64,000 nucleotides of DNA from assembly GCA_035708565.1 (NCBI GenBank), contig DASSSF010000058.1:2704-66703 (forward strand). Reading direction: 5' to 3'. A program made the translations under genes and the position numbers. The DNA is from Candidatus Limnocylindria bacterium. GTDB taxonomy: Bacteria; Chloroflexota; Limnocylindria; P2-11E. The first letter of the stretch is position 1, and each line of letters starts with the position of its first letter. The notes below the pieces were generated by a model. It did no database searches and was not told the DNA's origin. It saw nothing but the letters and a program-made list of their open reading frames with translations. Below, piece after piece: positions 25,217-61,980 of the stretch.

Positions 25217-25238
25217 CGCGTCATCATCGCATCGCCAC

Positions 25239-26048
25239 GTGGACGCTCCGCTCGTCCGGGCCTTCCTCGACGCGCTCGCGCCGGCCGCTCCCGATCCGGA
25301 GCGGGTGCGGCGCTGCCTCGCCGCGCTCCAGCGGCCCGACATCCGATACCTCGTCGCCACCGTCGCCGGCCCCGGCGCCGGACGGGTCGCGCGCGTGATC
25401 CGCGGGGTCGTCGAGGCGGCCGGCGCCCCGACAGGCACCGTCGACGGGAGCGCGCGCCTCGGCGGCGCTCCGCTGGACGATCCGCTCGTCGCGAGCGCCG
25501 GCACGCTCCTCGCGGACGCGGCGCTCCTGCTCTCGCAGGAGGGGACCGAGCTCGTGCGCCGCGAGGCCGACGTGCTGCTCGCCCTCGTGGCGTTCGCGCA
25601 GGCGTCGCGCCGCGTCGCGCTCCTCGTGGATGAGGACGTGCGGACAGACGACCCGCTCCACGTGCCCGTTCCGGATCTCGTCGTCCTCTGCGGGCTCGAC
25701 GGCGAGCGGGCCGACCGCGCCCTGTCGCTCCTTCCAGACGCGCGGCCGGTCGTGGCCTGCGGCGCGGACGACCCCGCGCGCGAGCGGATCCTCGCGGTGA
25801 CCGGCGAACGGGGCCTGCCGCTCCTCCTCGCGGGACGCGACTTCGCCGCGACGGGCGACGGACCCGCGCTCGACGTGGAGGTCGCGGGCGAGCGCTACGC
25901 CGCGCTGCCGCGCGCTCCCGAGGTCACGCCCGACGAGCTCGCGACCGGCATCGCCGGCGCGCTCGCGCTCGGCGCGCTCGGCATTCGCATGCGCGAGGAG
26001 TGGGTGCACACGGGTGCGGCCGCCGCCCGTGCCACCATGGATGCGTGA
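25239..26048 (+). CDS. Hypothetical Ala-rich protein
   Basis: 269 aa in a GC3-rich frame, divergent 22 nt from 23072..25216. I recognised no motif. Confidence 0.5.
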   Translation: MDAPLVRAFLDALAPAAPDPERVRRCLAALQRPDIRYLVATVAGPGAGRVARVIRGVVEAAGAPTGTVDGSARLGGAPLDDPLVASAGTLLADAALLLSQEGTELVRREADVLLALVAFAQASRRVALLVDEDVRTDDPLHVPVPDLVVLCGLDGERADRALSLLPDARPVVACGADDPARERILAVTGERGLPLLLAGRDFAATGDGPALDVEVAGERYAALPRAPEVTPDELATGIAGALALGALGIRMREEWVHTGAAAARATMDA

Positions 26049-38900: not shown

Positions 38901-39077
38901 GAGTACCGGCGCGACTACGGCGCCTTCCTTCTCGACCAGGGACGCGTCGCGGAAGCGCGCCGGGAGCTCGAGGCCGTGCGCGCGTTCTTCGGCTCGGACC
39001 TCGTCGCGCTCGAGCGGGACAAGACCGACGCGCTCCTCCGTCGTGCGGCGGAGGCCGAGAAGGCGGCTCGTCGCTAG
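35940..39077 (+). CDS. Class III adenylate/guanylate cyclase domain + AAA/STAND ATPase + TPR/helical repeats (1045 aa). Paralog of 17245..20544.
   Basis: 'LATILFADIVGST...FIGDAVMAVFGVP' CHD. Walker A 'GDAGVGKSRL'. Confidence 0.85.
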   Translation: MPEERKLATILFADIVGSTETGAAHDPEVVRRELSRAFAEMRQILERHGGTVEKFIGDAVMAVFGVPVAHDDDADRAVRAAFALRDRIAALSAGGRIPLELRLGLNTGQVVAGTGGETLVTGPAVNEAARLQQAAASGEILAGALTRRLTSGGVEYGPVRRVEAKGVGELEVAPAERLASAVPEQHRGIAGLQAPLIGRDEELRLLVDAYRKVEREERASLVTIYGDAGVGKSRLVRELVEALGDARVRRGRCLPYGEGITFWPVVEILRADAGITAQDTYEQATLKLRAAVLAAFGEATDDADAVARRLAVLAGIARAEDALPEVAADGVPNELRWGLRRYVELRAADEPLTLVFDDIQWAEPALYGLIEHLAEWTRAPAFLVCLARPEMRERRPGWGGGLLNAAAIRLDPLSEDESRRLIARLLDIDDLPEGVRAEVVRRAEGNPLYVEEFLRMLIDAGGVARRGGRFVATASLAELEVPPTLRGLIAARLDAAPAAVKHALQRASVVGKVFWPEAVAALGGVEGRADDVLLEAARRELVAELDERGPGGGRAWTFRHILVRDVAYVSLPKEERSRAHDLFGRWLEAAAGARLDEYADIVAYHAEQAFLLAHELGDPAAADLGRRALEGLMAAGRKARQRADAHASLAFHRRAQAIAQATAAPAAERVAAAGLAASARLQIESSDEALAEVRALLPEARAAGPSEALVALLVDTSFRTFDDKEQAFALDREAVEVARALRDPETIAFALFQSSWTPWGVGDLDMQRRCLLDALEHMRASGARRMEFGCLAWLANNGYMRGDFAAAHAYHEEAARRVAEGSSPLQRMFLTRQRGGWALSRGDLATAASLERDQLRQAQDLGLRSQIGVAHMWLARVLRDSGDLAAARAALESAVAMLAPAAEVAFRAEARAQLARVCVAMGDLEEARAQADTARAEVEADDAFTQCTSRSALAQVRAFEGRAVEAEGLFREALEGIARTGYRALHAEYRRDYGAFLLDQGRVAEARRELEAVRAFFGSDLVALERDKTDALLRRAAEAEKAARR

Positions 39078-48139: not shown

Positions 48140-48466
48140 GTGCTCCTGCTCGAGACACGCGGCAGGAAGAGCGGCGAGGCGCGCCGCACGCCGGTGTACT
48201 TCGTGCGCGACGGCGCCGACGTGATCGTCGTCGCGTCGAACTGGGGCCGCGACGACGATCCGGCCTGGTACCGCAACCTCATGGCGCGGCCGGACGACGC
48301 CGCGATGGTCGTCGACGGGCGGCGCACGGCGGTGCGGCCCGAGGCCGTCGCGCACGCGGACCGCGAACGCGTCTGGAAGGCCGCGGACGCCGCGTACCCG
48401 CAGTACGCGGACTACCGCAAGTGGACGCGGCGCGAGATCCCGCTCGTGCGCCTCATGCCGCGCTAG
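48140..48466 (+). CDS. Deazaflavin (F420H2)-dependent nitroreductase-family (DDN-like, PPOX-class split barrel)
   Basis: 'LLLETRGRKSGEARRTPVYFVRDGADVIVVASNWG...PAWYRNL...YPQYADYRKWTRREIPLVRL' is the DDN family pattern. The homologous N-terminus continues in-frame upstream to about 48040 with no canonical start. Confidence 0.75.
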   Translation: MLLLETRGRKSGEARRTPVYFVRDGADVIVVASNWGRDDDPAWYRNLMARPDDAAMVVDGRRTAVRPEAVAHADRERVWKAADAAYPQYADYRKWTRREIPLVRLMPR

Positions 48467-49587
48467 GCGGGTGCCCGCTCCTTCAGCGCGATCACGTTGA
48501 ATGCCGGGATCGGACGCGTGAGGCCCTTGAGCTCGAGATCCGGCAGGCGCTCACACTCGACCTGATCCTCGACCGCGGCGTGCACGCGCTGGCTGATCAC
48601 GATCTGGCCGTCCTTCGCCTGCCCCGCGAGCCGCGCGCCGAGGTTCGTGACCGCGCCGACCGCTCCGTAGTCGAAGCGGCCCTCGAAGCCGATCCGCCCG
48701 AGCGTCGCGTACCCGAGCGAGATCCCGACGCCGAAGCCGAGCGTGTAGCCCTTCTTCTTCCACGGCCGCGAGATCTCGCCGAAGCGCTCGCGCATCGCGA
48801 CGGCCATCCGAACGGCCCGGAGCGGCGCGTCCTCCTGCGTGATCGGGTCGTTGAAGAACGTCATGAACCCGTCGCCGGCGAAATGCTCGAGCGTGCCCTC
48901 GTGCCGGAACACGAGCTCGCCCATCGCCGCGTGGTACGTGCGGAGGACGGCGAGCGCCTCCTCGGGCTCGGAGGTGTCGGTGAAGGCGGTGTACCCGCGC
49001 AGGTCGCAGAACGCGACCGTGATCTCGCGCCGGTGCGGCTCGAGCGCCGACTCCGCGCCCTGCGACGTCACCATCTCCGCGATCTGCGGCGACAGGAAGT
49101 GGCGGAGCCGGCCGAGGCGCGCGAGCTCGTCGACCTGGTCGCGCACGCGTGCCTCGAGCGTCTGGTTCCAGTGCTCGAGCTCGCCGCGCTGGCGCTCGAC
49201 CGTGTCGTGGTACCGCTTCACGCGCAGGAGCGAGCGCACGCGAGTGAGGAGCTCGGTCTGGTCCCACGGCTTCGGGAGGAAGTCGTCCGCGCCGGCCTCG
49301 ACCGCCTTCTTCTTCTCCGGCAGGTCGCTCGCCGTGACCATGACGATCGGCAGGAACTGCGTCGCGGGGTCCGCGCGGACGCGGCGGCAGACCTCATAGC
49401 CGTCGATGCCGGGCAGCATGATGTCGAGGAGGACGAGGTCCGGCTTCTCGGTCAGCACCTTGAGGAGCGCGTCCTCGCCCGTCGCCGCCGTGACGACCGT
49501 GTAGCCCTGCGGCGCGAGGACGGCCTCGAGGAGCCGCAGGTTCTGCGGCACGTCGTCGACGGCGAGGATCTTCGCGGGCTCGGTCAC
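48463..49587 (-). CDS. Response regulator (receiver domain) fused to class III adenylate/guanylate cyclase
   Basis: REC 'ILAVDDVPQNLRL...LVLLDIMLPGIDG'. CHD 'ITVAFCDLRGYTAF...FAGDGFMTFF'. Confidence 0.9.
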   Translation of the reverse strand: MTEPAKILAVDDVPQNLRLLEAVLAPQGYTVVTAATGEDALLKVLTEKPDLVLLDIMLPGIDGYEVCRRVRADPATQFLPIVMVTASDLPEKKKAVEAGADDFLPKPWDQTELLTRVRSLLRVKRYHDTVERQRGELEHWNQTLEARVRDQVDELARLGRLRHFLSPQIAEMVTSQGAESALEPHRREITVAFCDLRGYTAFTDTSEPEEALAVLRTYHAAMGELVFRHEGTLEHFAGDGFMTFFNDPITQEDAPLRAVRMAVAMRERFGEISRPWKKKGYTLGFGVGISLGYATLGRIGFEGRFDYGAVGAVTNLGARLAGQAKDGQIVISQRVHAAVEDQVECERLPDLELKGLTRPIPAFNVIALKERAPA

Positions 49588-49955
49588 GCCCGCAGGTAGC
49601 CTCGCACCTGGTCGGGGAACACCTTGATGTCGATCGGCTTCGCGATGAAGCCGTCGAAGCCCGCCTTGTCGAAGCGCTCGCGGTCGTTCGCCATGACGGA
49701 GGCGGTGAGCGCGACGACGGGGATCTTCGACGTCGCGGCGTCCTTGCGGATCCGCTCGAACGCGGTGATCCCGTCGATCCCCGGCATCTGGATGTCCATG
49801 AGCACGAGGTCGGGCTGGTGCTCGCTCGCCATGCGGATCCCGGTCTCGCCGTCCGTCGCCTCGACGGTGCGGAAGCCCGCGAACCGGAGCACGTCGCGCG
49901 CGAGCTTCATGTTCTTCTCGTTGTCCTCGACGATGAGGATCAGCTCGTTCGCCAT
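49584..49955 (-). CDS. Single-domain CheY-like response regulator
   Basis: 123 aa with 'LILIVEDNEKN...LVLMDIQMPGIDG...KPI'. Confidence 0.9.
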   Translation of the reverse strand: MANELILIVEDNEKNMKLARDVLRFAGFRTVEATDGETGIRMASEHQPDLVLMDIQMPGIDGITAFERIRKDAATSKIPVVALTASVMANDRERFDKAGFDGFIAKPIDIKVFPDQVRGYLRA

Positions 49956-52900
49956 CTACCTCTTCGCGTCCCCCTTCAAGAGCGGCAGCGCGAACGTGAA
50001 GGTACTGCCCTTGCCGACCTCGCTGTCGACCCAGATACGCCCGCCGTGGAGCTCGACGAACTTCTTCGAGAGCGTGAGCCCGAGGCCGGTGCCCTCGCGC
50101 GCACGGCCCTCGCTCGTCGCGGCCTGGTGGAACTCCTCGAAGATCTTCTCGCGCTCGGCCTCCGGGATCCCGATGCCCGTGTCGTGCACGGCGACGCGGA
50201 CCTCGCCGTCGTCGCGATGTGCCTCGACCGCTACGTGGCCGCCGTCCGGCGTGAATTTCACGGCGTTCGAGAGGAGGTTGTAGACGATCTGTTTTACCTT
50301 CCGCTCGTCCGCGCGCACGCGGTCGACCTTCCCTCTGACCCTGAGGTCGACCTTGATGCCGTGCCGCGCGGCGCGCTCGCGCACCATCGTGACGCCGTTC
50401 TCGAGCGCCTCCTTGAGCGAGAACTCGCCGACTTCGAGCTCCATGCGGCCGGCCTCGACCTTCGAGAGGTCAAGGATGTCGTTGATGAGCGAGAGGAGGT
50501 GCCGACCCGACGAGAGGATGTCCTCGAGGTACTCCTTCTGCCGCGCGTTGGGCTCGCCGAACATGCCCTGCGCGAGGACCTCGCTGAAGCCGATGATCGC
50601 GTTGAGCGGCGTGCGCAGCTCATGGCTCATGTTCGCGAGGAACTCGCTCTTGTGCTGGTTCGCGAGCTCGAGCTGGCGCGACTTCTCCTGCGTCTCGCTG
50701 AAGAGGCGCGCGTTCTCGATTGCGATGACCGCCTGGTCCGCGAAGGTCTCGACGAGCCCGATCTGCTCACGGCTGAACGGCCGCGGCTCCGTCCGCCACA
50801 TCGCGATGACGCCGAGCGCCTTGCCCTCGTGCAGCAACGGCACGGAGAGGAGCGTCCGGAAGCCCCCCAGCTTCTGCGCGTCCAGGTACGTGTAGGTCTC
50901 GTCGGTGAGGACGTCGTGGATGTGGACCGTGCGACGCCCGATGAACGCGCGGCCGGTGGACGACCCCGCGTCGTCCGCCGCGATCGGATGCGCTCGCTGC
51001 CACTCGTGCATCACCTCGGCCTTCGTGCCGATGGCGGCGACCATCCGCAGGACCGGCCCCTCGGCGCGGTAGATGAAGCCGTTCTCCGCGCCGGCCAGGC
51101 GCGTCGCGTGCGCCACGACCGTGTTGAGCACGCCCGCGAGGTCTAGGCCCGAGCTCGTGATCTGGTTCAGGACCTCGGCGGTCGCGGTCTGCCGCGCGAG
51201 GGCGTCCTTCGTCTCGTTGAAGAGGCGTACGTTCTCCATCGCGATGGCGGCCTGATCCGCGAACGTCTCGACCAGGCGCATCTCCCGCTCCGTGAACGGA
51301 CGCACGTCGGTGTGGAAGACCATGAGCGTGCCGATCGCGCGGCCCTCGCGCATGAGTGGCACTGCGAGCCGTGTCAGCGGACCGTCCTGGGGCAGCTCCG
51401 GCCGCGTGCGCACATCCGCCACGTACTGCCGTCGCCCTGTGCGGATGCTGAGCGCGGCCAGCGTGGTGCCGCCGAGGCGCGCGTAGCCGGGGCGCGGGCT
51501 CCCGTCGGGCAACGCGGGGGCGAAGAGCGGGCCGTTGCCGGCGAGCCAGCGGATCTCATCCCCGTCGACCCGTCCGAGCTGCGCCGAGTCCGCGCCGCTG
51601 AGCGCTACCGCACGCTCGACGATCGTCTTGAGGACCGTGTCGAGGTCGAATGCCGAGCGGCTGATCGATGCGAGCACATCGGCGACCGCCGTCTGCTGCT
51701 CCAGCGCCTCTCTCGTCTCATTGAACAGGCGCACGTTCTCCATCGCGATCGCGGCCTGGTCGGCGAAGGTCGTCACGATGGCGACGTCGGCGTCCGTGAA
51801 CGGCTGCACGTGCGTTCGCCAGAGCGACAGCACGCCGACGACGCGGCCATCTCTCAGCAGCGGCACGCCGAGCATCGACCGCAGGTTGCCGACGCGCTGG
51901 TGCTCGCGCAGCGCGTAATCGGGATCGGCGCTCGCGTCGTCGATGCGGACCGCGCGACCCTCGGCCGTGACGCGTCCGGTCAGGCTGCCGCGGTCGTTCG
52001 GGGCGATCGGATGCTCCTCGTTCAGCCGGCGCAGCTCCTCCGGGATCTCGTACCCCGCGGCGATGCGCAGGAAGCCGTCGTCGTCCACGCGGTAGATCAC
52101 GCCATGCGCGGCGCGGCACAGCCGCGCCGCGCGCTCGATCACCGTGTTGAGGAGCGTCGGGAGATCGAAGGCGGAGCGTCCGATGGCGGCGAGCACCTCG
52201 CTGACGGCGGTCTGCTGCTCCAGCGCGTCCCTCGTCTCGTTGAAGAGGCGCACGTTCTCGATCGCGATGACCGCTTGATCGGCGAACGTCCGCAGGAGGT
52301 CGAGCTGCCGGTCGGCGAAGGGACCTGGTACGGAGCGCCGGAGCAGGATCGCGCCGATCGCCTTCCCCTCACGCATGAGCGGCATCGCGGCGGCGGCGCG
52401 ATGACCCGTTCGCCTCGCGAACTCGAGGGTGATCGGATAGTCGGCCGCGGCTGACGGTTCCTGGATGTCGGGGACGTGGACGAGCGCTCCGTCGACGATG
52501 GCGCGTCCCGTCATCGACGTGCGGTCCACGGGCCAGACCGCCTCGCGCTCCGCGTAGACGGGCCCCTCGTGTGCGACGGCGCGGAAGTGCCGGCCTTCGA
52601 CGAGGAGGACCGCCGCGTCCTCGGCGCCACAGAAGCGCACCGCGTTCCGGGCGATCGCGTCGAGCACGGGCTGGTCGCTCGTGGGCGAGCCCGCGATGGC
52701 GCGGAGGACCTCACCGGTCGCGGTCTGTCGCTCGAGCGCCTCTCTCGTCTCGTTGAAGAGCCGCACGTTCTCGATCGCGATCGCGGCCTGGTCCGCGAAC
52801 GTGCGGAGCAGCCCGATCTGCTTCTCGGTGAACGGGCGTACCTCCGTCCGGCGGAGCGTGATCGCGCCGAGCGGAACGCCTTCCCGGAGGAGCGGCGCGG

Positions 52901-55865
52901 CGAGGACCGTCCGCAGGCCGAGCTCTCGCGCGCCGCGCACGCCGGTCGGCCACTCCTCCTCGCTCTCGGCGGCCATGTCGTGCACGTGGATGACCTCCCG
53001 GTCGACGATCGCCCGGCCACGGACGGAGCCGCGGTCGATCTTCCACGGCGGGAGCGACCGCGCGATCGGGCCGTGCCGGGCGACCTGCTCGAAGAGGCCG
53101 TCGGCCCGGATGAGCCCGACGCCACAGTCCTCTGCCGCGCAGTAGCGGGCCGCGCTCCGCGCGATCGCGTCGAGCACGGGCTGGATGTCGCCGGGGGAGC
53201 TCGAGATGACCTGGAGGATCTCGCTGATCGCGGTCTGCTGCTCAAGCGACTCCTTCGTCTCGTTGAACAGCCGTACGTTCTCGATCGCGATCACCGCCTG
53301 GTCGGCGAACGTCCGGGCGAGGTCGATCTGCCGCTCGGTGAAGGGGCGCACCTCGGCCCGCCGCATGACGATCGCACCGACGGCCGTGCCCTGGCGGAGC
53401 AGCGGCGCGGCGAGCGTCGTGCGATGCCCGAACTTCGTCGCGAGCTCCTGGGTGCGCGGGTACGTGTCGTCCGCGAGCGGATCCTCGACCTGGAGCACGC
53501 GTGACTCGAGGATCGCCCGCCCGGCGATCGCTCCGGGCTCGATCGCGACGACCGTCGGGCGGGCGCTGTCGTGGCCGGAGACGATGGTCCCCGCGTGCGC
53601 TCGGGACACGAGCCGATCACCCTCGCGCAGCAGCACGATCACGTCCTCCGCGGCGCAGAACCGCTGCGCGCTCTCCGCGATCGCGTCGAGGACCGGCTGG
53701 AGCTCCGTCGGCGACGTGGACATGACGCGGAGGATCTCGGCGGTCGCGGTCTGCCGCTCGAGCGCCTCCTTCGTCTCGTTGAAGAGCCGGACGTTCTCGA
53801 TCGCGATCGCGGCCTGGGCCGCGAGCTGCTCGACGAGCCCCACCTCGCTCTCCCTGAACCCGCCGGGGCGAGCTCGGCCGAGGCGGATGGCGCCGATCGG
53901 CTGGCCGTCCTGGAAGACAGGCACCGAGAGCCGACTGCGGCTCCACGTCTCGTGCTCGGGCTGCGCCCCTTCCATGAGCGACGCGTCCGTGGCGAAGTCC
54001 GGGGTCTGGTGCGATCGGCCGTCGAGGATCGCCCGCCCGGGCAGCGTGCCGAAGTCCAGGCCGAACCTCCAGCCGAGCGGGACCCCTTCCGGCGGCGGCG
54101 GCCAGTTGCCGGCGCGCGCCTCGCTCAGGATCTCTTGACCGGCCCTGCGGTAGAACGCCGCCTGCTCCGCGCCGCACAGCCGCATCGCCGCTTCGAGGAT
54201 CACGGTGAGGACGGGCGCGACATCGCCCCGGGCCGCGGCGATCGCACTGTGGATCTCCGCCGTGGCAGTCTGCCGCTCGAGGGCGGCCTTGGTCTCGTTG
54301 AACAGACGCACGTTCTCGATCGCGATCACCGCCTGGTCGGCGAACGTCCGGGCCAGGTCGATCTGCCGCTCGGTGAAGTGGCGCACCTCGGCCCGCCGCA
54401 TGACGATCGCGCCGACCGCGACACCTTGGCGCAGCAAGGGGGCCGCGAGCGTGGTGCGGTGGCCGTACCGCTCCGCGAGCTCGCGGGAGCGCGGGTACGA
54501 GTCGTCGGCGAGCGGGTCCTCCACCTGAAGGACCTGCGACTCGAGGATGGCGCGTCCGGCGATGGCTCCGGGCTCGATCGTGACGACAGTGGGGCGGGCG
54601 CTGTCGAGGCTTGTGACGATGGTCCCCGCGTGCGCTCGGGACACGAGCTGATCGCCCTCGCGCAGCAGCACGACCACGTCCTCCGCGGCGCAGAACCGCT
54701 GCGCGCTCTGGGCGATCGCGTCGAGGACCGGCTGGAGCTCCGTCGGCGACGTGGACATGACGCGGAGGATCTCCGCGGTCGCGGTCTGCCGATCGAGCGC
54801 TTCGGCCAGCTCACGCCGGCGACGCACGGTCCGCTCGCCGAGCCTACCCAGCGCGACGCTGCCGGCGAGCAGCGCGGCGAGCAGCGCGACGCGCAGTGCG
54901 CGATCGACGGCGAGGGTGCGTTGGAGCTCCGCTCGTTCCGCCGCGGGATCGATCGCGGCGATCACGCGCCATCCCGTATCGCCGACCGGTGCGGCGGCGG
55001 CGATGCGAGGCGAGCGTGCGATCGGGTCGTCGCGCTCGACGGCGCCGGCAGCGGTGAGCGCTGGATCGGCCGTCAGATCCGCGCCGCTGATCGGTGGCTC
55101 GAGCGCTCTCGCGGCGAGGATCCCAGCGCCGTCCGTTAGGTACAGGTCGTCGGGCGCGGATGCGTGGGGGCGAAGCAGCTCGGCGAGCGGTGCGTTGGTC
55201 ACTTCGACGACGAACGCGCCGGCGAACGGCGTGAGCCCACCCGGGATCGGCGCGACCATCTGGATCGCGGGTCCGGCGCTCGGGCCGACCGATCGTTCTA
55301 CGTACCCGTACTCAGGCCTGCCAGACGATGGCCCGCCTGCCGTCGCCAGGCGTTTCGCGCGGAGGAATGTGGGCAGGTCCGTCACGGCGGGCCCCGGGAT
55401 CCGGCCTGCGCCCGTACCTCCTGCACCCTGTCCCCCAGGGCCAGATCCAACGCCTGCGCCGACGCCGACCGGCCGACCGTCGGCGTCCACGAACCACATG
55501 CTCGAGCCGCCAGCGTCCAGTCGCGCCCCGCCGACCGGACGGAGCGCGCGCAGTGTTGTCTCGAACGCGCGCTCGAGAGTCGCCGTGTCGCGCGCGGTCA
55601 CCGCCGCCCGGACCACGGGATCGTTCGCGGTAACGAGCGCGATGTTTCCGATCTCGCGGAGCCAGGCGTTCGCGACACCCGCGCCGCGGCGTGCCGACTG
55701 CTCCGCTCGCTCCCGCAGCGACGCCTCGAGACGCTCCTTCGCGTCGGCAGCCGCCACCTCGTCCAGTACGGCGATCGGCAGCGCGATGACGAGCGCGGTG
55801 AGCAGTGGCACGTACCACCACCGCGCGAACAGGCGCTCGACGACAGGCGCGAGCTCCCGGCGCAA
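49956..55865 (-). CDS. Giant sensor histidine kinase (1969 aa): TM, extracytoplasmic sensor domain, TM, eight tandem GAF domains, HisKA, HATPase_c
   Basis: Eight 'ENVRLFNET(K/R)...LE(R/Q)QTA(T/V)...' linker-GAF units. H-box 'FLANMSHELRTPLNAI'. G-boxes 'HDTGIGI', 'GTGLGLTL'. Confidence 0.9.
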   Translation of the reverse strand: MRRELAPVVERLFARWWYVPLLTALVIALPIAVLDEVAAADAKERLEASLRERAEQSARRGAGVANAWLREIGNIALVTANDPVVRAAVTARDTATLERAFETTLRALRPVGGARLDAGGSSMWFVDADGRPVGVGAGVGSGPGGQGAGGTGAGRIPGPAVTDLPTFLRAKRLATAGGPSSGRPEYGYVERSVGPSAGPAIQMVAPIPGGLTPFAGAFVVEVTNAPLAELLRPHASAPDDLYLTDGAGILAARALEPPISGADLTADPALTAAGAVERDDPIARSPRIAAAAPVGDTGWRVIAAIDPAAERAELQRTLAVDRALRVALLAALLAGSVALGRLGERTVRRRRELAEALDRQTATAEILRVMSTSPTELQPVLDAIAQSAQRFCAAEDVVVLLREGDQLVSRAHAGTIVTSLDSARPTVVTIEPGAIAGRAILESQVLQVEDPLADDSYPRSRELAERYGHRTTLAAPLLRQGVAVGAIVMRRAEVRHFTERQIDLARTFADQAVIAIENVRLFNETKAALERQTATAEIHSAIAAARGDVAPVLTVILEAAMRLCGAEQAAFYRRAGQEILSEARAGNWPPPPEGVPLGWRFGLDFGTLPGRAILDGRSHQTPDFATDASLMEGAQPEHETWSRSRLSVPVFQDGQPIGAIRLGRARPGGFRESEVGLVEQLAAQAAIAIENVRLFNETKEALERQTATAEILRVMSTSPTELQPVLDAIAESAQRFCAAEDVIVLLREGDRLVSRAHAGTIVSGHDSARPTVVAIEPGAIAGRAILESRVLQVEDPLADDTYPRTQELATKFGHRTTLAAPLLRQGTAVGAIVMRRAEVRPFTERQIDLARTFADQAVIAIENVRLFNETKESLEQQTAISEILQVISSSPGDIQPVLDAIARSAARYCAAEDCGVGLIRADGLFEQVARHGPIARSLPPWKIDRGSVRGRAIVDREVIHVHDMAAESEEEWPTGVRGARELGLRTVLAAPLLREGVPLGAITLRRTEVRPFTEKQIGLLRTFADQAAIAIENVRLFNETREALERQTATGEVLRAIAGSPTSDQPVLDAIARNAVRFCGAEDAAVLLVEGRHFRAVAHEGPVYAEREAVWPVDRTSMTGRAIVDGALVHVPDIQEPSAAADYPITLEFARRTGHRAAAAMPLMREGKAIGAILLRRSVPGPFADRQLDLLRTFADQAVIAIENVRLFNETRDALEQQTAVSEVLAAIGRSAFDLPTLLNTVIERAARLCRAAHGVIYRVDDDGFLRIAAGYEIPEELRRLNEEHPIAPNDRGSLTGRVTAEGRAVRIDDASADPDYALREHQRVGNLRSMLGVPLLRDGRVVGVLSLWRTHVQPFTDADVAIVTTFADQAAIAMENVRLFNETREALEQQTAVADVLASISRSAFDLDTVLKTIVERAVALSGADSAQLGRVDGDEIRWLAGNGPLFAPALPDGSPRPGYARLGGTTLAALSIRTGRRQYVADVRTRPELPQDGPLTRLAVPLMREGRAIGTLMVFHTDVRPFTEREMRLVETFADQAAIAMENVRLFNETKDALARQTATAEVLNQITSSGLDLAGVLNTVVAHATRLAGAENGFIYRAEGPVLRMVAAIGTKAEVMHEWQRAHPIAADDAGSSTGRAFIGRRTVHIHDVLTDETYTYLDAQKLGGFRTLLSVPLLHEGKALGVIAMWRTEPRPFSREQIGLVETFADQAVIAIENARLFSETQEKSRQLELANQHKSEFLANMSHELRTPLNAIIGFSEVLAQGMFGEPNARQKEYLEDILSSGRHLLSLINDILDLSKVEAGRMELEVGEFSLKEALENGVTMVRERAARHGIKVDLRVRGKVDRVRADERKVKQIVYNLLSNAVKFTPDGGHVAVEAHRDDGEVRVAVHDTGIGIPEAEREKIFEEFHQAATSEGRAREGTGLGLTLSKKFVELHGGRIWVDSEVGKGSTFTFALPLLKGDAKR
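53290..53830. repeat. Direct repeat copy B (GAF3-coding) of an internal duplication within the kinase gene. About 90% nt identity to 54320..54830.
   Basis: Compared by eye: for example, 53641..53800 is nearly identical to 54670..54830. Confidence 0.7.
54320..54830. repeat. Direct repeat copy A (GAF1-coding), partner of 53290..53830
   Basis: The protein segments 'ERQTATAEILRVMSTSPTELQPVLDAIA(Q/E)SAQRFCAAEDV...' are about 90% identical between GAF1 and GAF3. Confidence 0.7.
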
Positions 55866-55985
55866 GGCCGCCCTCCTCTACCTCAGGCGGCGAGTATCCG
55901 CGCGCACGCTTCGTAACGGAAGCGTCGGGCGCACAACGCCCCCGACGTTGCGGCGGCGACGCGCCCGTCCTTACCCTTCGGCGCC

Positions 55986-58127
55986 ATGGCCGAGCCGGAG
56001 GGGATCTGGGAGACGCTGCGGCAGCGGCTCGACTACGCCTCGTTCGTCCCGCGCCTCGTCCCCGATCTCGTGCGCTCCGACCTGCGCACGCGTGCGGGCG
56101 AGCCCTACGTCGTCATCAAGAACCCCCACGGCGACAAGGGCGCGGGCACGTACCTCCGCCTCGAGGCCGCGGACGCGGCGCTCCTCGAGCTGATGGACGG
56201 GAAGCGCACGATGCAGGAGATCCTCGTCGAGCACCTCGAGCGGACCGGCTCGTTCGCGCTCGACCGCCTCGCGCGGCTGACGAGCGCCCTGCGCATGAAC
56301 GGCTTCTTCGGCGAGGAGCCGCCGCTCGTCTACGAGAAGCTCCGCGCGCGCCGCCGTCCGCTCCTCGACCGGCTCTCTCTGCTCATGCGCCGGCTGATCC
56401 TCTGGGACGTCGCGCGGTGGGAGAACGCCGAGGCCGTGGTCGACGTCGTGTACCGCCTCGGCGGCCGGCTCTTCTTCACGCGGCTCGGCGCCCTCGTCGC
56501 GGTCGCCTTCAGCGCGTACGGCCTGTGGCTCTGGGCGCAGGAGGTCCGCGCGCCGCGGCACGACCTCGTGAGCCAGGACGGCTCGTACACGCTCGGGATC
56601 CTCATCCTCGTCGTGCTCCAGGTGATCTCGATCTCCGTGCACGAGGCGGGGCACGCGCTCGCGATCCGCCACTACGGCCGGCGCGTGCGTCGGCTCGGCT
56701 TCGCGATCTACTACCTCTTCCCGTGCTTCTACGTGGACGCGACGGACATGACGCTCGCGTCGCGCCGCGAGCGCGTGGTCGTGTCGCTCGCCGGTCCCGT
56801 CGGGGGGCTGCTCACGGCGGCGGTCTGCGCGGTCGTGACCGCCACCGCCGGCGACTCGCTCGCGGCCTCCCTCGCGTTCAAGGCGGCGAGCCTGTTCGTC
56901 TTCCAGTTCTTCCTGAACCTGCTGCCGATCCTCGACCTCGACGGCTACAACATCCTCGTCGACGCGCTCGACATCCCGCTGCTGCGCCAGCGGGCGGTCG
57001 GCTTCGTCCGCGGGCGCGCGATCCGCAAGATCCGCCGCCGCGAGAAGTGGACGCGCGGGGAGGTCGGCCTCGCGGCGTTCGGCGGCTCGGCGATCCTCAT
57101 CTCCTTCCTCATGCTCTTCATCGCGCTCTGGCTGTGGCAGACGCGAGTGCAGGCCGCGACCAGCGAGCTCGTCGCGATCGGGCCCGTGGGACTCCTCGGC
57201 CTCGCCCTCATCGTCCTCGTCTTCGTCGGTCCGCTGCTCGTGGCGCTCGCGGGCCGCGTGCTCGGGCTCGGCCGCGTCGCGACGAGGTCGTTCACGTCGC
57301 GCCGCCGGAAGGCGAAGCAGCTCGAGATGGAGGAGCGGATCACGACGCTCGGCCGCATCCGCTTCCTCAACGGCCTCCCGCGCACCGCGCTCGCCGCCAT
57401 CGCGTCGCACCTCGAGGTGCACGACGTGGAGGCCGGCGAGGCGGTCTTCAGCGCGGGCGACGTCGGCGACCGCTTCTACATCGTCCGCTCGGGACGCGTC
57501 GAGGCGGTCTCGCCGGAGGGGCAGGTGCTCAACGTGATCATCCCGGGCGAAGGCTTCGGCGAGCTCGCGCTCCTCGACCGCGCGACGCGGAGCGCGACCG
57601 TGCGCGCGACGGAGCCGACGGTGCTGTGGTCGCTCGACCGCGGCCACTTCGAGCGCTGGGTCGCGGAGCGCTACGAGATCGCCGCGCGGATCCGCGCGTC
57701 GCGCGAGGAGCGCGACCGGCTCGTGCGCCTGCCCTTCTTCAGCGGGCTCTCGCGGCAGCAGCTCGAGCGGATCCTCCCGCGCATGCGCACCGTCCGAGCG
57801 AGCGCGGGCGAGGAGGTCGTGCGCGCCGGCGAGCCCGGCGACAGGTACTTCGTCATCCATACGGGGACGGCGCGCGTGACGCTCCCCGACGGCACGCACG
57901 TGCGCGACCTCGGACCGGGCGACGGCTTCGGCGAGCTCGCGCTCCTCTTCGGCGGCCCGCGGACGGCGACCGTGACCGCCACGAGCGACATGACCCTCGG
58001 CGCCCTCGGCCGTCGCGACTTCGCCGAGCTCGTGAAGCAGTCGGGCGAGACCGCCGGCACGTTCCGCCGGCGCACCGCGCACTATGTCGGCGCCGGCATC
58101 GGTGCCACGGTGGCGAGGGGGTCGTAG
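55986..58127 (+). CDS. Multi-domain membrane protease: N-terminal PqqD/RRE-like domain, site-2-protease (M50) domain with HEXXH 'HEAGH', and two cyclic-nucleotide-binding domains (713 aa)
   Basis: 'YLRLEAADAALLELMDGKRTMQEILVEHL' matches the PqqD pattern (xLNxTAxxIWxLLDGxRTxxEI). TM helices surround 'VHEAGHALAIRHYG' and a later 'DLDGYN' (LDG). Two CNB domains 'FGELALL...RSATVRA' and 'FGELALLFGGPRTATVTA'. Confidence 0.85.
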   Translation: MAEPEGIWETLRQRLDYASFVPRLVPDLVRSDLRTRAGEPYVVIKNPHGDKGAGTYLRLEAADAALLELMDGKRTMQEILVEHLERTGSFALDRLARLTSALRMNGFFGEEPPLVYEKLRARRRPLLDRLSLLMRRLILWDVARWENAEAVVDVVYRLGGRLFFTRLGALVAVAFSAYGLWLWAQEVRAPRHDLVSQDGSYTLGILILVVLQVISISVHEAGHALAIRHYGRRVRRLGFAIYYLFPCFYVDATDMTLASRRERVVVSLAGPVGGLLTAAVCAVVTATAGDSLAASLAFKAASLFVFQFFLNLLPILDLDGYNILVDALDIPLLRQRAVGFVRGRAIRKIRRREKWTRGEVGLAAFGGSAILISFLMLFIALWLWQTRVQAATSELVAIGPVGLLGLALIVLVFVGPLLVALAGRVLGLGRVATRSFTSRRRKAKQLEMEERITTLGRIRFLNGLPRTALAAIASHLEVHDVEAGEAVFSAGDVGDRFYIVRSGRVEAVSPEGQVLNVIIPGEGFGELALLDRATRSATVRATEPTVLWSLDRGHFERWVAERYEIAARIRASREERDRLVRLPFFSGLSRQQLERILPRMRTVRASAGEEVVRAGEPGDRYFVIHTGTARVTLPDGTHVRDLGPGDGFGELALLFGGPRTATVTATSDMTLGALGRRDFAELVKQSGETAGTFRRRTAHYVGAGIGATVARGS

Positions 58128-58131
58128 GTAG

Positions 58132-58347
58132 ATGGACTGTTTCATCTGCGAGAAGACGGCGGTCGGCGCGTGCCGCTTCTGCGGCCGCGGCGCCTGCCGC
58201 GAGCACGCCCGGACGCACCCGTTCCTCCTGGACGTCTTCCGGGGAGACCGGCACAAGGTCCTGCGGGCGCTCGTCGTCGAGGACGCGATCCACTGTGGCG
58301 TCTGCAAGCCGAGGGGCGAGCCCGTGGAGCTTCCTGAGCTCGAGTAG
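58132..58347 (+). CDS. DUF2180-like Cys-rich zinc-ribbon small protein (71 aa)
   Basis: 'CFICEKT...CRFCGRGACREH...HCGVCKP' gives 8 Cys. It lies 4 nt after the protease stop, so it is translationally coupled. Confidence 0.65.
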   Translation: MDCFICEKTAVGACRFCGRGACREHARTHPFLLDVFRGDRHKVLRALVVEDAIHCGVCKPRGEPVELPELE

Positions 58348-58472
58348 GCCGTCTCTGTAACGCCGGCTTCCCTCGGAGGTCGGCGCGATGACGCTCGGGC
58401 GTGCCCGATCCCATCGACCGCCGCCGCGGACGCGCGCAGGGTCCGCCCTAAGACGAGCATGGAGGTAGGGCG

Positions 58473-58832
58473 ATGAGCGACAAGATGGACGTGAGCGGGA
58501 GCGTGGCGACGGGCAAGGCGCTCGACGACGTCCGGCTCGGGGCGGCCATCCCCGCCGGGGACCCCACCGCCGTGTCGGCGGCGGAGGCGTGGCCGGAGCA
58601 CGCGCTGGCTCGGCTGAACGAGGCGCAGGGGGCGGCGGAGCTCGATGCCTCTGCGGCGGCCCAGTGGCCGGAGCACGCGATCACGCGCGTCTCGGCGGCG
58701 GAGGCCGGGTCCCGCGAGGGCGACGCGTACCTGACGGCGGACGAGGCCGGCCGCGACGCGGGCACGGAGTCCCTGGCCGACGACCTCGTGATCGTCGACG
58801 TGCCGGTGTGCGAGCAGTCACTCGAGCTCTAG
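58473..58832 (+). CDS. Small acidic hypothetical protein (119 aa) with an internal 'WPEHA' duplication and a C-terminal 'GDAYLTADEAGRD' motif
   Basis: GGAGG SD 8 nt upstream. Followed by an intrinsic terminator. Confidence 0.55.
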   Translation: MSDKMDVSGSVATGKALDDVRLGAAIPAGDPTAVSAAEAWPEHALARLNEAQGAAELDASAAAQWPEHAITRVSAAEAGSREGDAYLTADEAGRDAGTESLADDLVIVDVPVCEQSLEL

Positions 58833-58844
58833 GAACGGGCCCGA

Positions 58845-58883
58845 GGGAGCGGTCGAGCGGAAGACGCGGACCGCTCCCTTTTT
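58845..58883 (+). terminator. Rho-independent terminator (stem gggagcggtc/gaccgctccc, 14-nt loop, TTTTT)
   Basis: Perfect 10-bp GC-rich inverted repeat plus a T5 run 12 nt after the stop of 58473..58832. Confidence 0.75.
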
Positions 58884-59043
58884 CGTCGCCGGCGGCGTAC
58901 AGTTCGCGCTTCGCAAGGGCAGGGGAGGGAAACGTTCGAAGGATCACAGTCCAGGCGTTCGCCGGCCGAACGTTGCCGCGCGCGTCCGGGAGGACGCTTC
59001 CCCCCAACAGCCCGGTAGGGCGAAAGGAACGGTTCAGGGAGAT

Positions 59044-60249
59044 ATGAGCAAGCAGGCACTAGGGCAGGTCGTGCAGCGCGCGATCAGTGACGCCGCCTTC
59101 CGGCGTCAGCTCCAGAGCGACCCGACGGGCGCGCTCAAGGGCTTCGACCTCACGGCGGACGAGCGCGCGGCGCTCCGCGCCGGCGACGCGTCCAAGCTCT
59201 CCTCGCTCGGCGTCGACCAGCGCATGAGCAAGGCGTTCGCGCTCGGCGAGGCGAGCCAGGTCTCGCGGGCCCCGAGCGCCGACACGCGTCTCGCCTCGGC
59301 GACCGACGGGGGCGGATCCGACAACGCGGAGGCAGGGATCTGGGGCGACCAGTCCGGCGCGCGCGCGGCCTCGGCCTCGGACGCGACGAGCGACTCCCAG
59401 GCGCGCCTCGCGGACATCGACGCGAAGATCAGCGGCATCCCGAGCGGCACCGAGAACTGGCGCGCGGCCGACGTCGAGGGCTCGCCGGAAGCGGCGCGCT
59501 CCGCGATGGACGCCGCGGCGGGCAGCGACTCCCAGGCGCGCCTCGCGGACATCGACGCGAAGATCAGCGGCACCCCGAGCGGCACCGAGAACTGGCGCGC
59601 GGCCGACGTCGAGGGCTCGCCGGAAGCGGCGCGCTCCGCGATGGACGCCGCGGGCGGCAGCGACTCGCAGGCGCGTCTCGCGGACATCGACGCGCGCTTC
59701 AACACGGCCGACGCCGCGGACGGCAGCGACTCGAGCGCCGGCACGGCGTACGTGACGGCGGACGAGGCCGGCCGCGACGCGACCGGCATCGCGGGCGGGC
59801 GTCCGCTCTTCGCGACCTCGAGCGCCGAGGCCCAGGACGGCTCCGGCGGCAGCTTCTCGATCTCGGCCGACGAGCAGGGCCGCGGCGACGCGACGGCGGT
59901 CGCGGGCAGCGACTCGAACGCGACCTCGGCGCAGATCACGGCGGACGAGTTCGGCCGCAGGGCCGCGGCTTCCGCCGGCGACAGCGACGCCGCGGGCGGC
60001 ACGGCGTACATCACGGCCGACGAGGCCGGTCGCGACTCCAGCGCGCTCCGCTCGAGCGACGTGGCTGCCCGCGAGGGCGACGCGTTCCTCACGGCGGACG
60101 AGGCCGGCCGCGACTACGTCCCCGAGGGCGGTTCCCTCTCGCGCAACATGGCGACGGACTCGGCGGACATCCAGCGCGAGATGCTCGAGGGCGGCAGCGG
60201 TGGCGGCTCGCCCGAGCACTCGAGCGACGGACCCGAGATCCAGCCCTAG
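59044..60249 (+). CDS. Acidic repeat protein (401 aa) with an NHLP/Nif11-type leader-like N-terminal domain, 45-aa tandem repeats and recurring 'A[YF][LVI]TADEAGRD' motifs
   Basis: N-terminal 'ALGQVVQRAISDAAFRRQLQSDPTGALKGFDLTADE' matches the nitrile-hydratase-leader-peptide pattern (A..D..F(K/R)..L..DP..AL). 'aggga' SD. No signal peptide. Confidence 0.7.
   Translation: MSKQALGQVVQRAISDAAFRRQLQSDPTGALKGFDLTADERAALRAGDASKLSSLGVDQRMSKAFALGEASQVSRAPSADTRLASATDGGGSDNAEAGIWGDQSGARAASASDATSDSQARLADIDAKISGIPSGTENWRAADVEGSPEAARSAMDAAAGSDSQARLADIDAKISGTPSGTENWRAADVEGSPEAARSAMDAAGGSDSQARLADIDARFNTADAADGSDSSAGTAYVTADEAGRDATGIAGGRPLFATSSAEAQDGSGGSFSISADEQGRGDATAVAGSDSNATSAQITADEFGRRAAASAGDSDAAGGTAYITADEAGRDSSALRSSDVAAREGDAFLTADEAGRDYVPEGGSLSRNMATDSADIQREMLEGGSGGGSPEHSSDGPEIQP
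59392..59700 (+). repeat. 135-bp tandem repeat x about 2.3 (copies 59392..59526 and 59527..59661 differ at about 3 nt; a diverged partial third copy follows) inside CDS 59044..60249
   Basis: Read directly from the sequence. It encodes '..DSQARLADIDAKISG(I/T)PSGTENWRAADVEGSPEAARSAMDAA(A/G)GS'. Confidence 0.85.
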
Positions 60250-60271
60250 ACGCGGCATCCTCTCTGTCCCG

Positions 60272-60305
60272 GAAGCGCGGCCCCCACCCCCGGGGGCCGC
60301 GCTTC
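60272..60305. terminator. Bidirectional terminator hairpin (14-bp stem gaagcgcggccccc/gggggccgcgcttc) between convergent genes, followed by a T-rich tract
   Basis: Perfect inverted repeat 22 nt after the stop of 59044..60249 and immediately after the Crp stop. Confidence 0.7.
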
Positions 60306-60310
60306 TTCCT

Positions 60311-60985
60311 TTAGTAGCGGATGTCCTTCTGGAGGGCCGCCGGGTCGAGGATCTCGATGTGGCGGCGGCCGATGCGGATCGCGTTCCGTTTTTCGAGGTC
60401 GGCGAGCGCCCGGTTCACGGACACGCGCGTCGCGCCGACGAACGCGGCGAGGTCCTCCTGCGTCATGTCGAGCTGGCGCTTCCCGCCCGAGAGCTCCGAG
60501 ATGTCGAGGAGGCACTTCGCGACGCGGCCGCCCAGGTCGAGGAAGACGAGGTCCTCGACGCGGCCGCTGGACCGGCGAACCGTGCGCGCGAGGTGGGCGA
60601 GCATCTCGCGCATCGCGGCCGGGTAGCGCTCGAGCGCGGCGAGGAAGTCCTGCCGGCCGAGCGTCAGCACCTCGGTCTCGGTGATGGCCGTGACGGTCGC
60701 CGACCGCGGCGCGTCGTCGAACAGCGCGAGGTCGCCGAAGATGTCGCCGCCGCGCTGGATGCCGACGACGACCTCGCGACCGTTCTCATCGGGGAGCGAG
60801 ATCTTCACCGTGCCGGCGACGATCACGAAGAGGTGCGCCGCGGGGTCGTCGCGGTGGAAGATGACCTCGTCGCGAGCGAAGCGCCGCGGCCGCATGCGTC
60901 CGGCGAGCGCGACGCGCTCGTGCGGAGGCAGGGCGGCGAAGAGCGGCGTGATCGAGAGGTGCTCGGCGAGCGCGTTCGTGTCCAT
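60311..60985 (-). CDS. Crp/Fnr family transcriptional regulator (cNMP-binding + C-terminal HTH)
   Basis: 224 aa with 'GDIFGDLALF...RSATVTA' and HTH 'MTQEDLAAFVGATRVSVNRAL'. Confidence 0.9.
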   Translation of the reverse strand: MDTNALAEHLSITPLFAALPPHERVALAGRMRPRRFARDEVIFHRDDPAAHLFVIVAGTVKISLPDENGREVVVGIQRGGDIFGDLALFDDAPRSATVTAITETEVLTLGRQDFLAALERYPAAMREMLAHLARTVRRSSGRVEDLVFLDLGGRVAKCLLDISELSGGKRQLDMTQEDLAAFVGATRVSVNRALADLEKRNAIRIGRRHIEILDPAALQKDIRY

Positions 60986-61030
60986 GGCCGGTGAGCCTCC
61001 CTGTGTCCCGGCGGGAGACTAGCCCTCGCG

Positions 61031-61980
61031 CTACGCCTTGACGAGCGCCTCGAGGCGGGGCTTCACCTCGCGCATCAGGCGCTCGGCGCTCTCGCGGTCG
61101 AAGGGCGCGCCCATGCCGAAGATGAAGCCGCGGGCGCCGGCCTCCCACTGCTGCCGAAGCCGCTCGACCCACGCGTCGACGTTCGGGACGCCGGGAAGCG
61201 GCGAGGCGGGCGCGTTCCCGGCGGGATGGCGGTGGCGGCCCTGGAGCTGCCGCAGGCGCTCGCGCAGGTCGCCCTCGCTCTCGCGGATGAGGATCGTGCC
61301 GCCCGTCGTCGGGAGGATCTCGCCCGGGTCGCGCCCGACGTCGGCGCAGTGCCGCTTCAGCGCGCCGATCTTCCGCGCGATCACCTCGGGCGTCCCGAAC
61401 CCGTGCCACATGTCCGCGTAGCGCGCGGTGATCCGCAGCGTCACCTGCTCGCCGCCACCGCCGATGAGGATCGGGAGCGCCTTCTGCACGGGCCGCACGC
61501 CGAGGCGCGCGTCGCTGAGCTCGTAGTGCTTGCCCGCGAACGAGGTCCGCTCGCGGCGGAGCAGCGACCGCGCGACGCGCGCCGCTTCGCGGAGCTTCGC
61601 GAGGCGGATCGGTGCCGTGTCGAACGGGATCCCGTACATGCGGTGCTCGCCCTCGTGCCAGGCCGCGCCGAGCCCGAGGATCGCGCGGCCGCCGCTGATG
61701 TTGTCGAGCGTCGCCGCCATGTTCACCAGCACGGCGGGGTGGCGGTACGTGTTCCCCGTGACGAGCATCCCGATCCTCACCCGCTTCGTCACCGCGCCCC
61801 ACGCCGCGAGGACCTGCCAGCCTTCGAGGTTCGGGCCGCCGACGTCGCCGTACAGCGGGACGAAGTGGTCCCAGGTCATGAGGGAGTCGTAGCCGAGCGA
61901 GTCGACGACGAGGCCGAAGTCGCGGAGCTCGTCCCAGGTGCAGTGCTGCGGGTGGAGCTGGATCCCGAAGTGGATGGGTA
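61031..61980 (-). CDS. LLM-class F420/flavin-dependent oxidoreductase. Its N-terminus lacks a canonical start.
   Basis: The ORF-track ATG at 61879 ('MTWDHF') truncates the conserved N-terminus. In-frame 'RIPIHFGIQLHPQH...LVVDSLGYDSL' continues up to the upstream gene's TAG with no ATG/GTG/TTG. ATA is at 61980 and ATC at 61974. Confidence 0.65.

Follow-up and report, generated by a model that had tools for sequence, protein, structure and literature searches.

Precursors of the NHLP and Nif11 type (TIGR03793, TIGR03896) are said, in work ascribed to Haft et al. 2010, to be linked to processing and export systems that carry cyclic-nucleotide (cNMP)-binding domains. Multi-core precursors of RiPPs (peptides that are synthesised ribosomally and modified after translation) include the cyanobactin precursor PatE and those of repeat-core graspetides such as plesiocin. 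SpoIVFB, an M50 protease with a cytoplasmic nucleotide-sensing CBS domain, cleaves Pro-sigma-K, which is not a transmembrane protein. In the daptide systems the MpaP family, in which a RiPP recognition element (RRE) is fused to a site-2 protease, removes leaders in an RRE-dependent manner (PMC10028931). Os1348 of Pseudomonas sp. Os17 (PDB 6LK7) is an 85-residue protein that forms a six-helix dimer and has been implicated in antibiotic activity; its gene lies beside those for a GNAT protein, a soluble HExxH peptidase and a SagB-type dehydrogenase, under Gac/Rsm control (PMC7726476). The subject here is a locus related to several of these systems in a 64-kb stretch of DNA, hereafter the window, from Candidatus Limnocylindria bacterium (assembly GCA_035708565.1, contig DASSSF010000058.1, positions 2,704 to 66,703 of the forward strand; GC content 73%), whose gene layout is based on a list of open reading frames (ORFs) and Pfam assignments. 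Protein B (401 aa; 59044..60249, + strand), an Os1348-family NHLP-clan protein, is encoded downstream of a 713-residue M50 membrane protease (55986..58127, +) with an RRE and two cNMP-binding (CNB) domains. The favoured reading, at a probability of about 0.45, is that B is a dedicated substrate, or 'precursor-like' protein, of this protease in a cassette wired to cyclic-nucleotide signalling.

The B gene has a GC content at third codon positions (GC3) of 0.96, like its neighbours, and is therefore regarded as genuine coding sequence. A first-pass annotation of the locus, made from the sequence alone, had described a leader-like head, and this description holds: residues 4-62 constitute a RiPP-leader-type NHLP-clan domain matching NF038399 ('Os1348 family NHLP clan protein') with 62.3 bits against a cutoff of 40. 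A protein identical to B already carries this name at NCBI, and the suggestion of a new repeat family is overstated, as B belongs to a family that has been named. Residues 3-60 match the sequence of the Os1348 structure (6lk7_A) with E = 7e-4, and TIGR03896 gives a domain-level match with E = 5e-9. PF14407 (Frankia_peptide) scores 30.2 bits (E = 5e-7), under its gathering threshold of 48 bits, and is a weak match for all homologues in precomputed annotations; ECOD curators have grouped it with the leader-type domains of LigA, NHase-alpha, Nif11 and ComX (PMC12353581). The head domain (residues 1-68; 59044..59247, +) is the most conserved part of the family, being 56-88% identical across loci with 23 invariant alignment columns. 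It contains the segment GFDLTADE, ends in SKAFALGE and is all-helical in the AlphaFold2 model, with a predicted local distance difference test (pLDDT) score of 78-90.

More than 440 homologues of B, 190-540 aa in length, have been found, essentially all of them from Limnocylindria or Chloroflexota metagenomes. Candidate distant relatives from Pseudohongiella (three loci) proved to be spurious pattern matches within an unrelated secreted protein. The family tails are hypervariable, 130-470 aa long, rich in A, G, D, S and T, free of Cys, with a median pI near 4.06, and bear sparse aromatic 'islands' that differ by subclade. They terminate in S, P, A or G, the C-terminus of B being ...GPEIQP. A 135-bp tandem repeat in B (59389..59694, +; 2.3 copies, 97% identical according to Tandem Repeats Finder) encodes 45-aa modules (SDSQARLADIDAKISG... 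and ARLADIDAKISG...) that are predicted to be helical, and such high identity indicates a very recent internal duplication in the tail. The model places helices in these repeats at residues 148-174 and 193-221 (pLDDT about 60-84), while residues 226-370, with the whole motif array described below, are coil with pLDDT below 50; the acidic tail is thus predicted to be mostly disordered.

The head of B matches NF038399 and the 6LK7 sequence, and its gene, like that of Os1348, lies beside one for an HExxH-type metalloprotease. Unlike the tailless Os1348, B continues past the head for about 340 aa, and its partners are an RRE-M50-CNB2 membrane protease, a zinc-ribbon protein and Crp. The locus shares with the NHLP/Nif11 precursors a long helical leader-type domain, tandem paralogues and a conserved leader followed by a variable C-terminal part, as well as the reported tie of the processing machinery to CNB domains. 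In contrast to those systems, it lacks both a double-glycine C39-peptidase ABC exporter and a clear GG site, and in place of a short core the C-terminal region of B consists of hundreds of acidic, disordered residues.

The protease has the hallmarks of an M50 site-2 protease: HEAGH at residue 219 (HExxH) and NLLPILDLDG at 311 (NxxPxxxxDG) lie within transmembrane-like segments, of which there are about six between residues 162 and 429, and PF02163 scores 34.4 bits against a threshold of 27.2. Two intact phosphate-binding cassettes (FGELALLDRATRSA at 525 and FGELALLFGGPRTA at 649) conform to the pattern G-E...R-[ST]-A in tandem CNB domains that resemble the regulatory subunits of PKG and PKA, PF00027 reaching 146 bits over the two. 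The N-terminal RRE (residues about 20-110) was revealed by fold comparison alone, its fold being likened to the RREs of TigE, ThcOx, TglI, MibB and LynD and also to those of PbtF, TbtB, MccB, NisB and SuiB; a profile search of this domain against PDB sequences gave no match, and Pfam PqqD matches weakly in 6 of 18 protease orthologues. The best NCBIfam match, over residues 51-414, is the daptide intramembrane metalloprotease NF041824, and the next is the YydH/LiaK epipeptide protease. The enzyme is an MpaP-like fusion of an RRE and a site-2 protease, with two added cNMP sensors. It is homologous over its length to the family that includes MpaP; unlike MpaP, it scores 139 bits against an equivalog cutoff of 300 and carries the two additional domains at its C-terminus. 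The daptide enzymes MpaB, MpaC, MpaD and MpaM have no conserved homologues nearby and, in contrast to daptide precursors, members of the B family are not short and hydrophobic, do not end in Thr and lack the ELExMEAP leader motif.

The two genes belong to a conserved cassette. Loci were fetched by alignment of the head, one genome per species, and the counts refer to Chloroflexota loci with enough flanking sequence. The order M50-CNB protease, 71-aa protein, one or two Os1348-type genes and a convergent Crp gene is kept in about 55 of 62 loci. An Os1348-type gene directly downstream of the M50-CNB gene in so many loci bears out the association with M50/CNB proteases that had been proposed. Two M50-CNB orthologues picked independently of the head, on contigs of about 250 kb, are found in the same cassette. 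The 71-aa protein (58132..58347, +), which starts 4 nt past the protease stop codon, is rich in Cys and His and presumed to bind zinc; C3, C6, C14, C17, C22, C55 and C58 are invariant and the His residues nearly so. Its Pfam matches are weak only (DUF2180, B-box-like), and with 68-92% identity across loci it is among the best-conserved proteins of the cassette, the protease showing 53-70% and Crp 56-74%. The Crp/Fnr-family regulator, with a CNB domain and a helix-turn-helix (60311..60985, - strand, convergent with B), is found at that place in almost every locus. The cassette is apparently inherited vertically and specific to Limnocylindria. Six contigs that carry it are binned in Saccharimonadales, Thermoanaerobaculia, Acidiferrales or Mycobacteriales metagenome-assembled genomes, probably through binning errors. 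Solo Os1348 paralogues at three loci elsewhere in the genomes have unrelated contexts and are uninformative.

Besides the CNB domains, a cyclase operon and a Crp operator tie the cassette to cyclic-nucleotide signalling. Divergent from the protease gene lies an operon (48463..55865, -) for a multi-GAF histidine kinase of 1969 aa (49956-55865, -), a receiver (REC) protein (49584-49955, -) and a REC-adenylate/guanylate cyclase (48463-49587, -). The trio is adjacent to the cassette in many loci, among them L004, L036, L071 and L072, and is divergent in the window, L004, L071 and L072; it is co-directional in L013, L037, L047 and L050, where the end of the cyclase gene abuts the start of the protease gene. 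The kinase contains many near-identical GAF repeats joined by a recurring 34-residue linker, and its orthologues span about 790 to 1600 aa, indicating that the GAF array grows and shrinks. In all, the 64 kb holds three class III adenylate/guanylate cyclase genes (17245-20544, -; 35940-39077, +; 48463-49587, -), two of them encoding cyclase-AAA_16-TPR giants and the third the REC-cyclase, which suggests a heavy investment of this organism in cyclic-nucleotide signalling.

The operator is a 16-bp site, nGTnA-N6-TCACA, centred 85-100 nt before the start of the Os1348-type genes in most of the 41 upstream regions compared. In the window a Crp/Fnr-type operator-like site, CGTTCGAAGGATCACA (58933..58948, +), has its centre some 103 nt upstream of the B start. 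At most 3 mismatches are found in 36 of the 41 regions, mostly at a fixed position, a level also attained by about 24% of shuffles, and perfect TGTGA-N6-TCACA sites are present in two loci. As a control, the region upstream of the protease gene has no conserved Crp-type site, its mismatch distribution being like that of shuffles. The neighbouring Crp reads RVSVNR where E. coli CRP has RETVGR, and this difference may relate to the variable fourth base of the operator. An Rfam scan of 55700-61100 found no riboswitch or known RNA at E ≤ 1.

B shares a short motif with protein A (119 aa; 58473..58832, +), which is encoded between the 71-aa protein and B. The pattern [ST]ADE.GR has five sites in B (residues 238, 274, 299, 324 and 350), in an array at residues 226-362 (59719..60129, +), and one in A (residue 88), with no other match in the six frames of the window. 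Three units of B are strong (AYVTADEAGRD, AYITADEAGRD and AFLTADEAGRD) and two are weak (ISADEQGRG and ITADEFGRR). Similarity between A and B is limited to REGDA[YF]LTADEAGRD, with 14 of 15 residues identical (BLASTP E = 9e-7), and for the single unit of A (REGDAYLTADEAGRD; 58713..58757, +) and the last one of B the DNA agrees in 46 of 48 nucleotides. Such identity points to common descent or gene conversion, not to convergence. Regular-expression searches, BLASTP and shuffles thus agree with the earlier statement that A and B have a specific recurring unit in common. The strings quoted in the first-pass annotation are all present, including both copies of WPEHA(L/I)(A/T)R in A, and it was also right that the two proteins are acidic (pI 4.06 for A and 4.23 for B) and have no transmembrane segment (neither has a hydrophobic 19-mer, and the maximum Kyte-Doolittle window means are 0.92 and 0.34, respectively). 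It was mistaken in letting A terminate in the motif, which occupies residues 81-101; the protein continues beyond it for 18 residues (ADDLVIVDVPVCEQSLEL).

In a set of 150 non-identical proteins of the family, the strict pattern [FY][ILVM][TS][AS]DE.G is found 104 times, spread over 58 members, and composition-preserving shuffles give about 0. Copy number per protein ranges from 0 to 5, and the position is conserved, the median distance to the C-terminus being about 50 aa. A logo built from 79 distinct instances extends the motif to an 18-residue unit, R-x-G-x-A-[FY]-Φ-T-A-D-E-x-G-[RN]-D-x-x-A (for example AAREGDAFLTADEAGRDYV), in which positions -5 to -1 and +8 to +12, outside the search pattern, carry 1.4-2.7 bits each; beyond the unit the flanks are at background level. 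Of the 150 proteins, 129 have a relaxed anchor, A-[FY]-Φ-x-x-[DSEG]-[EDS], located a median of about 57 residues before the C-terminus (for example AFIDESESYLT and AFIPSDSADVQRE); the other 21 lack it. As a single C-proximal anchor is general to the family, the C-proximal copy, whose general form is A-[FY]-Φ-x-x-[D/S]-E, is taken as ancestral and the extra copies in the subclade of the window as secondary; those in B are the product of recent internal duplication. A phmmer search with residues 226-401 of B against 1.84 billion representatives returned only family members and two spurious hits to unrelated repeat proteins, so the tail motif is family-specific. A spread of the motif through unrelated families without any link to proteases, which would have counted against the first-pass proposal, is therefore not seen. 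The motif also bears a short similarity to the head segments GFDLTADE and KAFALGE, a likeness that offers only a lead. As a short linear motif, it would most plausibly determine docking to the RRE-protease or cleavage by it.

Protein A has the appearance of genuine coding sequence, because its GC3 is 0.97 overall and 0.93-1.00 in each third, like neighbouring genes, and a GGAGG ribosome-binding site precedes its ATG. It is a headless acidic orphan and not a second family member, having one unit in common with the family. A word-indexed search of 5.8 billion proteins returned A alone, tblastn against 70 loci found no homologue and NF038399 does not match it. The hidden Markov model (HMM) of the family tails gives 28.6 bits for A, a score reached by none of 500 shuffles; residues 1-78 do no better than 377 of 500 shuffles, and the family-like part amounts to only about 20 residues. 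The WPEHAxxR repeats of residues 1-80 were aligned with the GDQHDxARS modules of the family by tblastn without composition correction, but with a Smith-Waterman shuffle z of about 1 and an HMM score no better than shuffles there is no ground to claim homology beyond the unit.

The location of A is that of a family gene. It starts about 125 nt past the 71-aa gene, the spacing of the first tandem Os1348 paralogue in relatives, five of whose loci have such tandem paralogues; the DNA upstream of A aligns with the DNA upstream of that first paralogue, the operator there being degenerate. A search of all frames between the 71-aa gene and B turned up neither a remnant of a head nor traces of a frameshift. 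Directly 3′ of A, between A and B, is a GC-rich hairpin with a 12-bp stem followed by TTTTT (58843..58884, +; RNA fold -34.3 kcal/mol, z = -2.0). A simple terminator scan missed it, presumably on account of a long stem with an internal loop that falls outside the scan pattern, and direct folding shows it. It resembles an intrinsic terminator, which implies that A and B would be separate transcription units. This headless, lineage-specific protein is probably what remains of the first tandem paralogue, with one unit retained, and it might compete with B for the same binding site.

In the favoured reading, the GAF kinase, REC and REC-cyclase proteins would produce a cNMP, with which the neighbouring Crp-family regulator would control transcription by binding the operator upstream of each Os1348-type gene. 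The same nucleotide would bind the two CNB domains of the protease and gate its activity. The RRE would dock the Os1348/NHLP-type protein and the M50 core would cut B, so that the folded head and the disordered, acidic tail would come apart or the tail be fragmented. An intact RRE-protease in fixed synteny beside a leader-type head is most simply understood as an enzyme-substrate pair, and the tandem precursor-like paralogues with conserved heads and hypervariable tails fit the logic of leader and substrate. The lack of tailoring enzymes and exporter, the class-wide vertical synteny and the protein-sized acidic tails argue for regulated intracellular proteolysis over a secreted natural product. 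In its logic such a device would resemble SpoIVFB and Pro-sigma-K, where the cytoplasmic ligand-binding domain of an M50 protease likewise gates the cut of a dedicated cytoplasmic or peripheral protein; it would differ in having tandem CNB instead of CBS domains, in the proposed recruitment by an RRE and in a substrate that is not a sigma factor.

Several points weigh against this reading. Cleavage of B is inferred, and B has none of the hydrophobic or amphipathic segments usual in substrates of site-2 proteases and MpaP. The head is better conserved than the protease, and in Os1348 it forms a stably folded dimer (PMC7726476), which together suggest a function of its own rather than that of a disposable leader. 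The strict TADE unit is confined to the 58 of 150 members noted above and even the relaxed anchor is absent from 21, so that the conserved RRE cannot depend on the strict motif; the similarity of the motif to the head segments is short. The protease falls well under the NF041824 cutoff (139 against 300 bits). A Foldseek search with the full B model gave only non-significant matches (E above 1), among them LigA and the helical RiPP precursor domain SonA; 6LK7 was not returned.

An alternative is that B is not a substrate at all. It could be a cAMP/Crp-regulated, disordered acidic protein, for example a stress hydrophilin, cation buffer or interaction hub, whose folded head acts as a regulator or adaptor by binding a partner such as the 71-aa protein, the protease or Crp, and whose motif units provide multivalent binding sites for it. 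This would agree with a head and a 71-aa protein that are better conserved than the enzyme, the stable fold of the Os1348 dimer, a tail whose predicted disorder and subclade-specific aromatic islands are typical of regions with short linear motifs, the Crp operator and the want of a hydrophobic segment for intramembrane cleavage. Nevertheless, an RRE on a catalytically intact protease beside a leader-type domain reads more simply as an enzyme-substrate pair, and the postulated binding partner has no independent support; this explanation is judged rather unlikely. A classical RiPP cluster, in which B, and perhaps A, would be a multi-core precursor whose TADE units undergo modification, are cut out by the M50 protease and are set free as bioactive peptides, is more doubtful still. 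PF14407 was originally predicted as an ATP-grasp-linked peptide family (PMC8939145), and a leader-type recognition domain with an RRE-containing partner encoded nearby, the usual mark of a RiPP precursor, is found here. The NHLP-clan head, the RRE-fused homologue of a leader peptidase, the tandem precursor genes and repeated Thr/Asp/Glu units reminiscent of multi-core graspetide precursors all speak for it, and luciferase-like oxidoreductase genes often lie nearby. The latter are missing from many loci, however, and neither an exporter nor a modifying enzyme, whether of the ATP-grasp, YcaO, radical-SAM, lanthipeptide or another kind, was found in the conserved core or the scanned window ORFs (part of the 64 kb was gene-called); the constant members are the protease, the 71-aa protein and Crp. 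The ATP-grasp ligase expected next to a graspetide precursor is not adjacent to B, nor is an ATP-grasp gene present within 7-8 kb on either side in L001, L004, L005, L071 and L072. Reiterated short units with a conserved, recognition-like sequence in one protein do recall the multi-core precursors, but here there is no cognate macrocyclase or ATP-grasp enzyme, the number of units varies across the family, most of whose members have one anchor only. With 0 to 5 copies, one general C-proximal anchor and Cys-free tails of 130-470 aa and pI about 4, the earlier idea of a multi-core RiPP precursor finds little footing, and the apparent vertical inheritance in fixed synteny with housekeeping genes across the class is unlike the patchy occurrence of biosynthetic clusters.

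Two further explanations concern the shared unit and protein A. Both A and B are rich in Ala, Asp, Gly and Ser in a genome of 73% GC with extreme GC3, a background against which low-complexity sequence might converge by composition. Yet the excess of 104 occurrences over shuffles, the information at positions outside the search pattern, the absence of any other six-frame match in the window and the conserved distance from the C-terminus leave such a coincidence with a negligible chance, and a chance origin of the unit is effectively excluded. The second concerns whether A itself has a function. Known from this metagenome-assembled genome alone, it takes the copy-1 position of relatives, like theirs about 125 nt past the 71-aa gene, behind a degenerate operator and with a family-like part of some 20 residues, so it could be a functionless, decaying remnant of a tandem paralogue, or a by-product of assembly or annotation, with the unit as a relic. 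This falls not far short of even odds, the counterweight being the high GC3 in all thirds, the ribosome-binding site, the intact frame, a terminator-like hairpin of its own, the lack of any head remnant or frameshift trace and a unit nearly identical at the DNA level to the last one of B.

Elsewhere in the window, an 810-aa ORF (23072-25504, -) has a GC3 of 0.96 and a strong coding signature with no Pfam match at 1e-5. A clear homologue of the lipase-maturation factors, a family best known in eukaryotes, is encoded at 15408-16838 (-) and contains LMF1 and LMF1_C.

Two elements of the cassette are already known: the family of B has been named, and fusions of an RRE with a site-2 protease have come from daptides. 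The CNB-bearing variant of the protease, the zinc-ribbon partner, the acidic repeat tails with their unit and the wiring to Crp and a cyclase are undescribed in the searchable literature, as is the combination of an RRE, an M50 intramembrane protease and tandem cyclic-nucleotide sensors. Limnocylindria are abundant, uncultured Chloroflexota of soil and freshwater with almost no experimentally characterised biology, and the cassette is present at the fetched locus in nearly all of the about 55 species-representative genomes retrieved through the head domain. If the pairing of B with the protease is enzymatic, it would provide a testable case of ligand-gated intramembrane proteolysis and extend RRE-guided recognition to protein-sized substrates, and the 18-residue unit offers a defined peptide with which to assay binding and cleavage. 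Should the cassette instead be a RiPP pathway of an unusual sort, it would establish a class without an obvious tailoring enzyme. A bolder proposal, which is possible but improbable at present, is that Limnocylindria have turned RiPP-type recognition machinery, an RRE-site-2 protease together with an NHLP-clan 'leader', into an intracellular device for second-messenger signalling, in which cAMP from the phosphorelay-cyclase would induce the substrate via Crp and license its cleavage via the CNB domains, the TADE units would be multivalent sites for RRE docking or cleavage, and headless proteins like A would act as decoys. If true, the protease would be the first of the intramembrane kind to be gated by cyclic nucleotides, and its RRE the first to serve signalling instead of natural-product biosynthesis.

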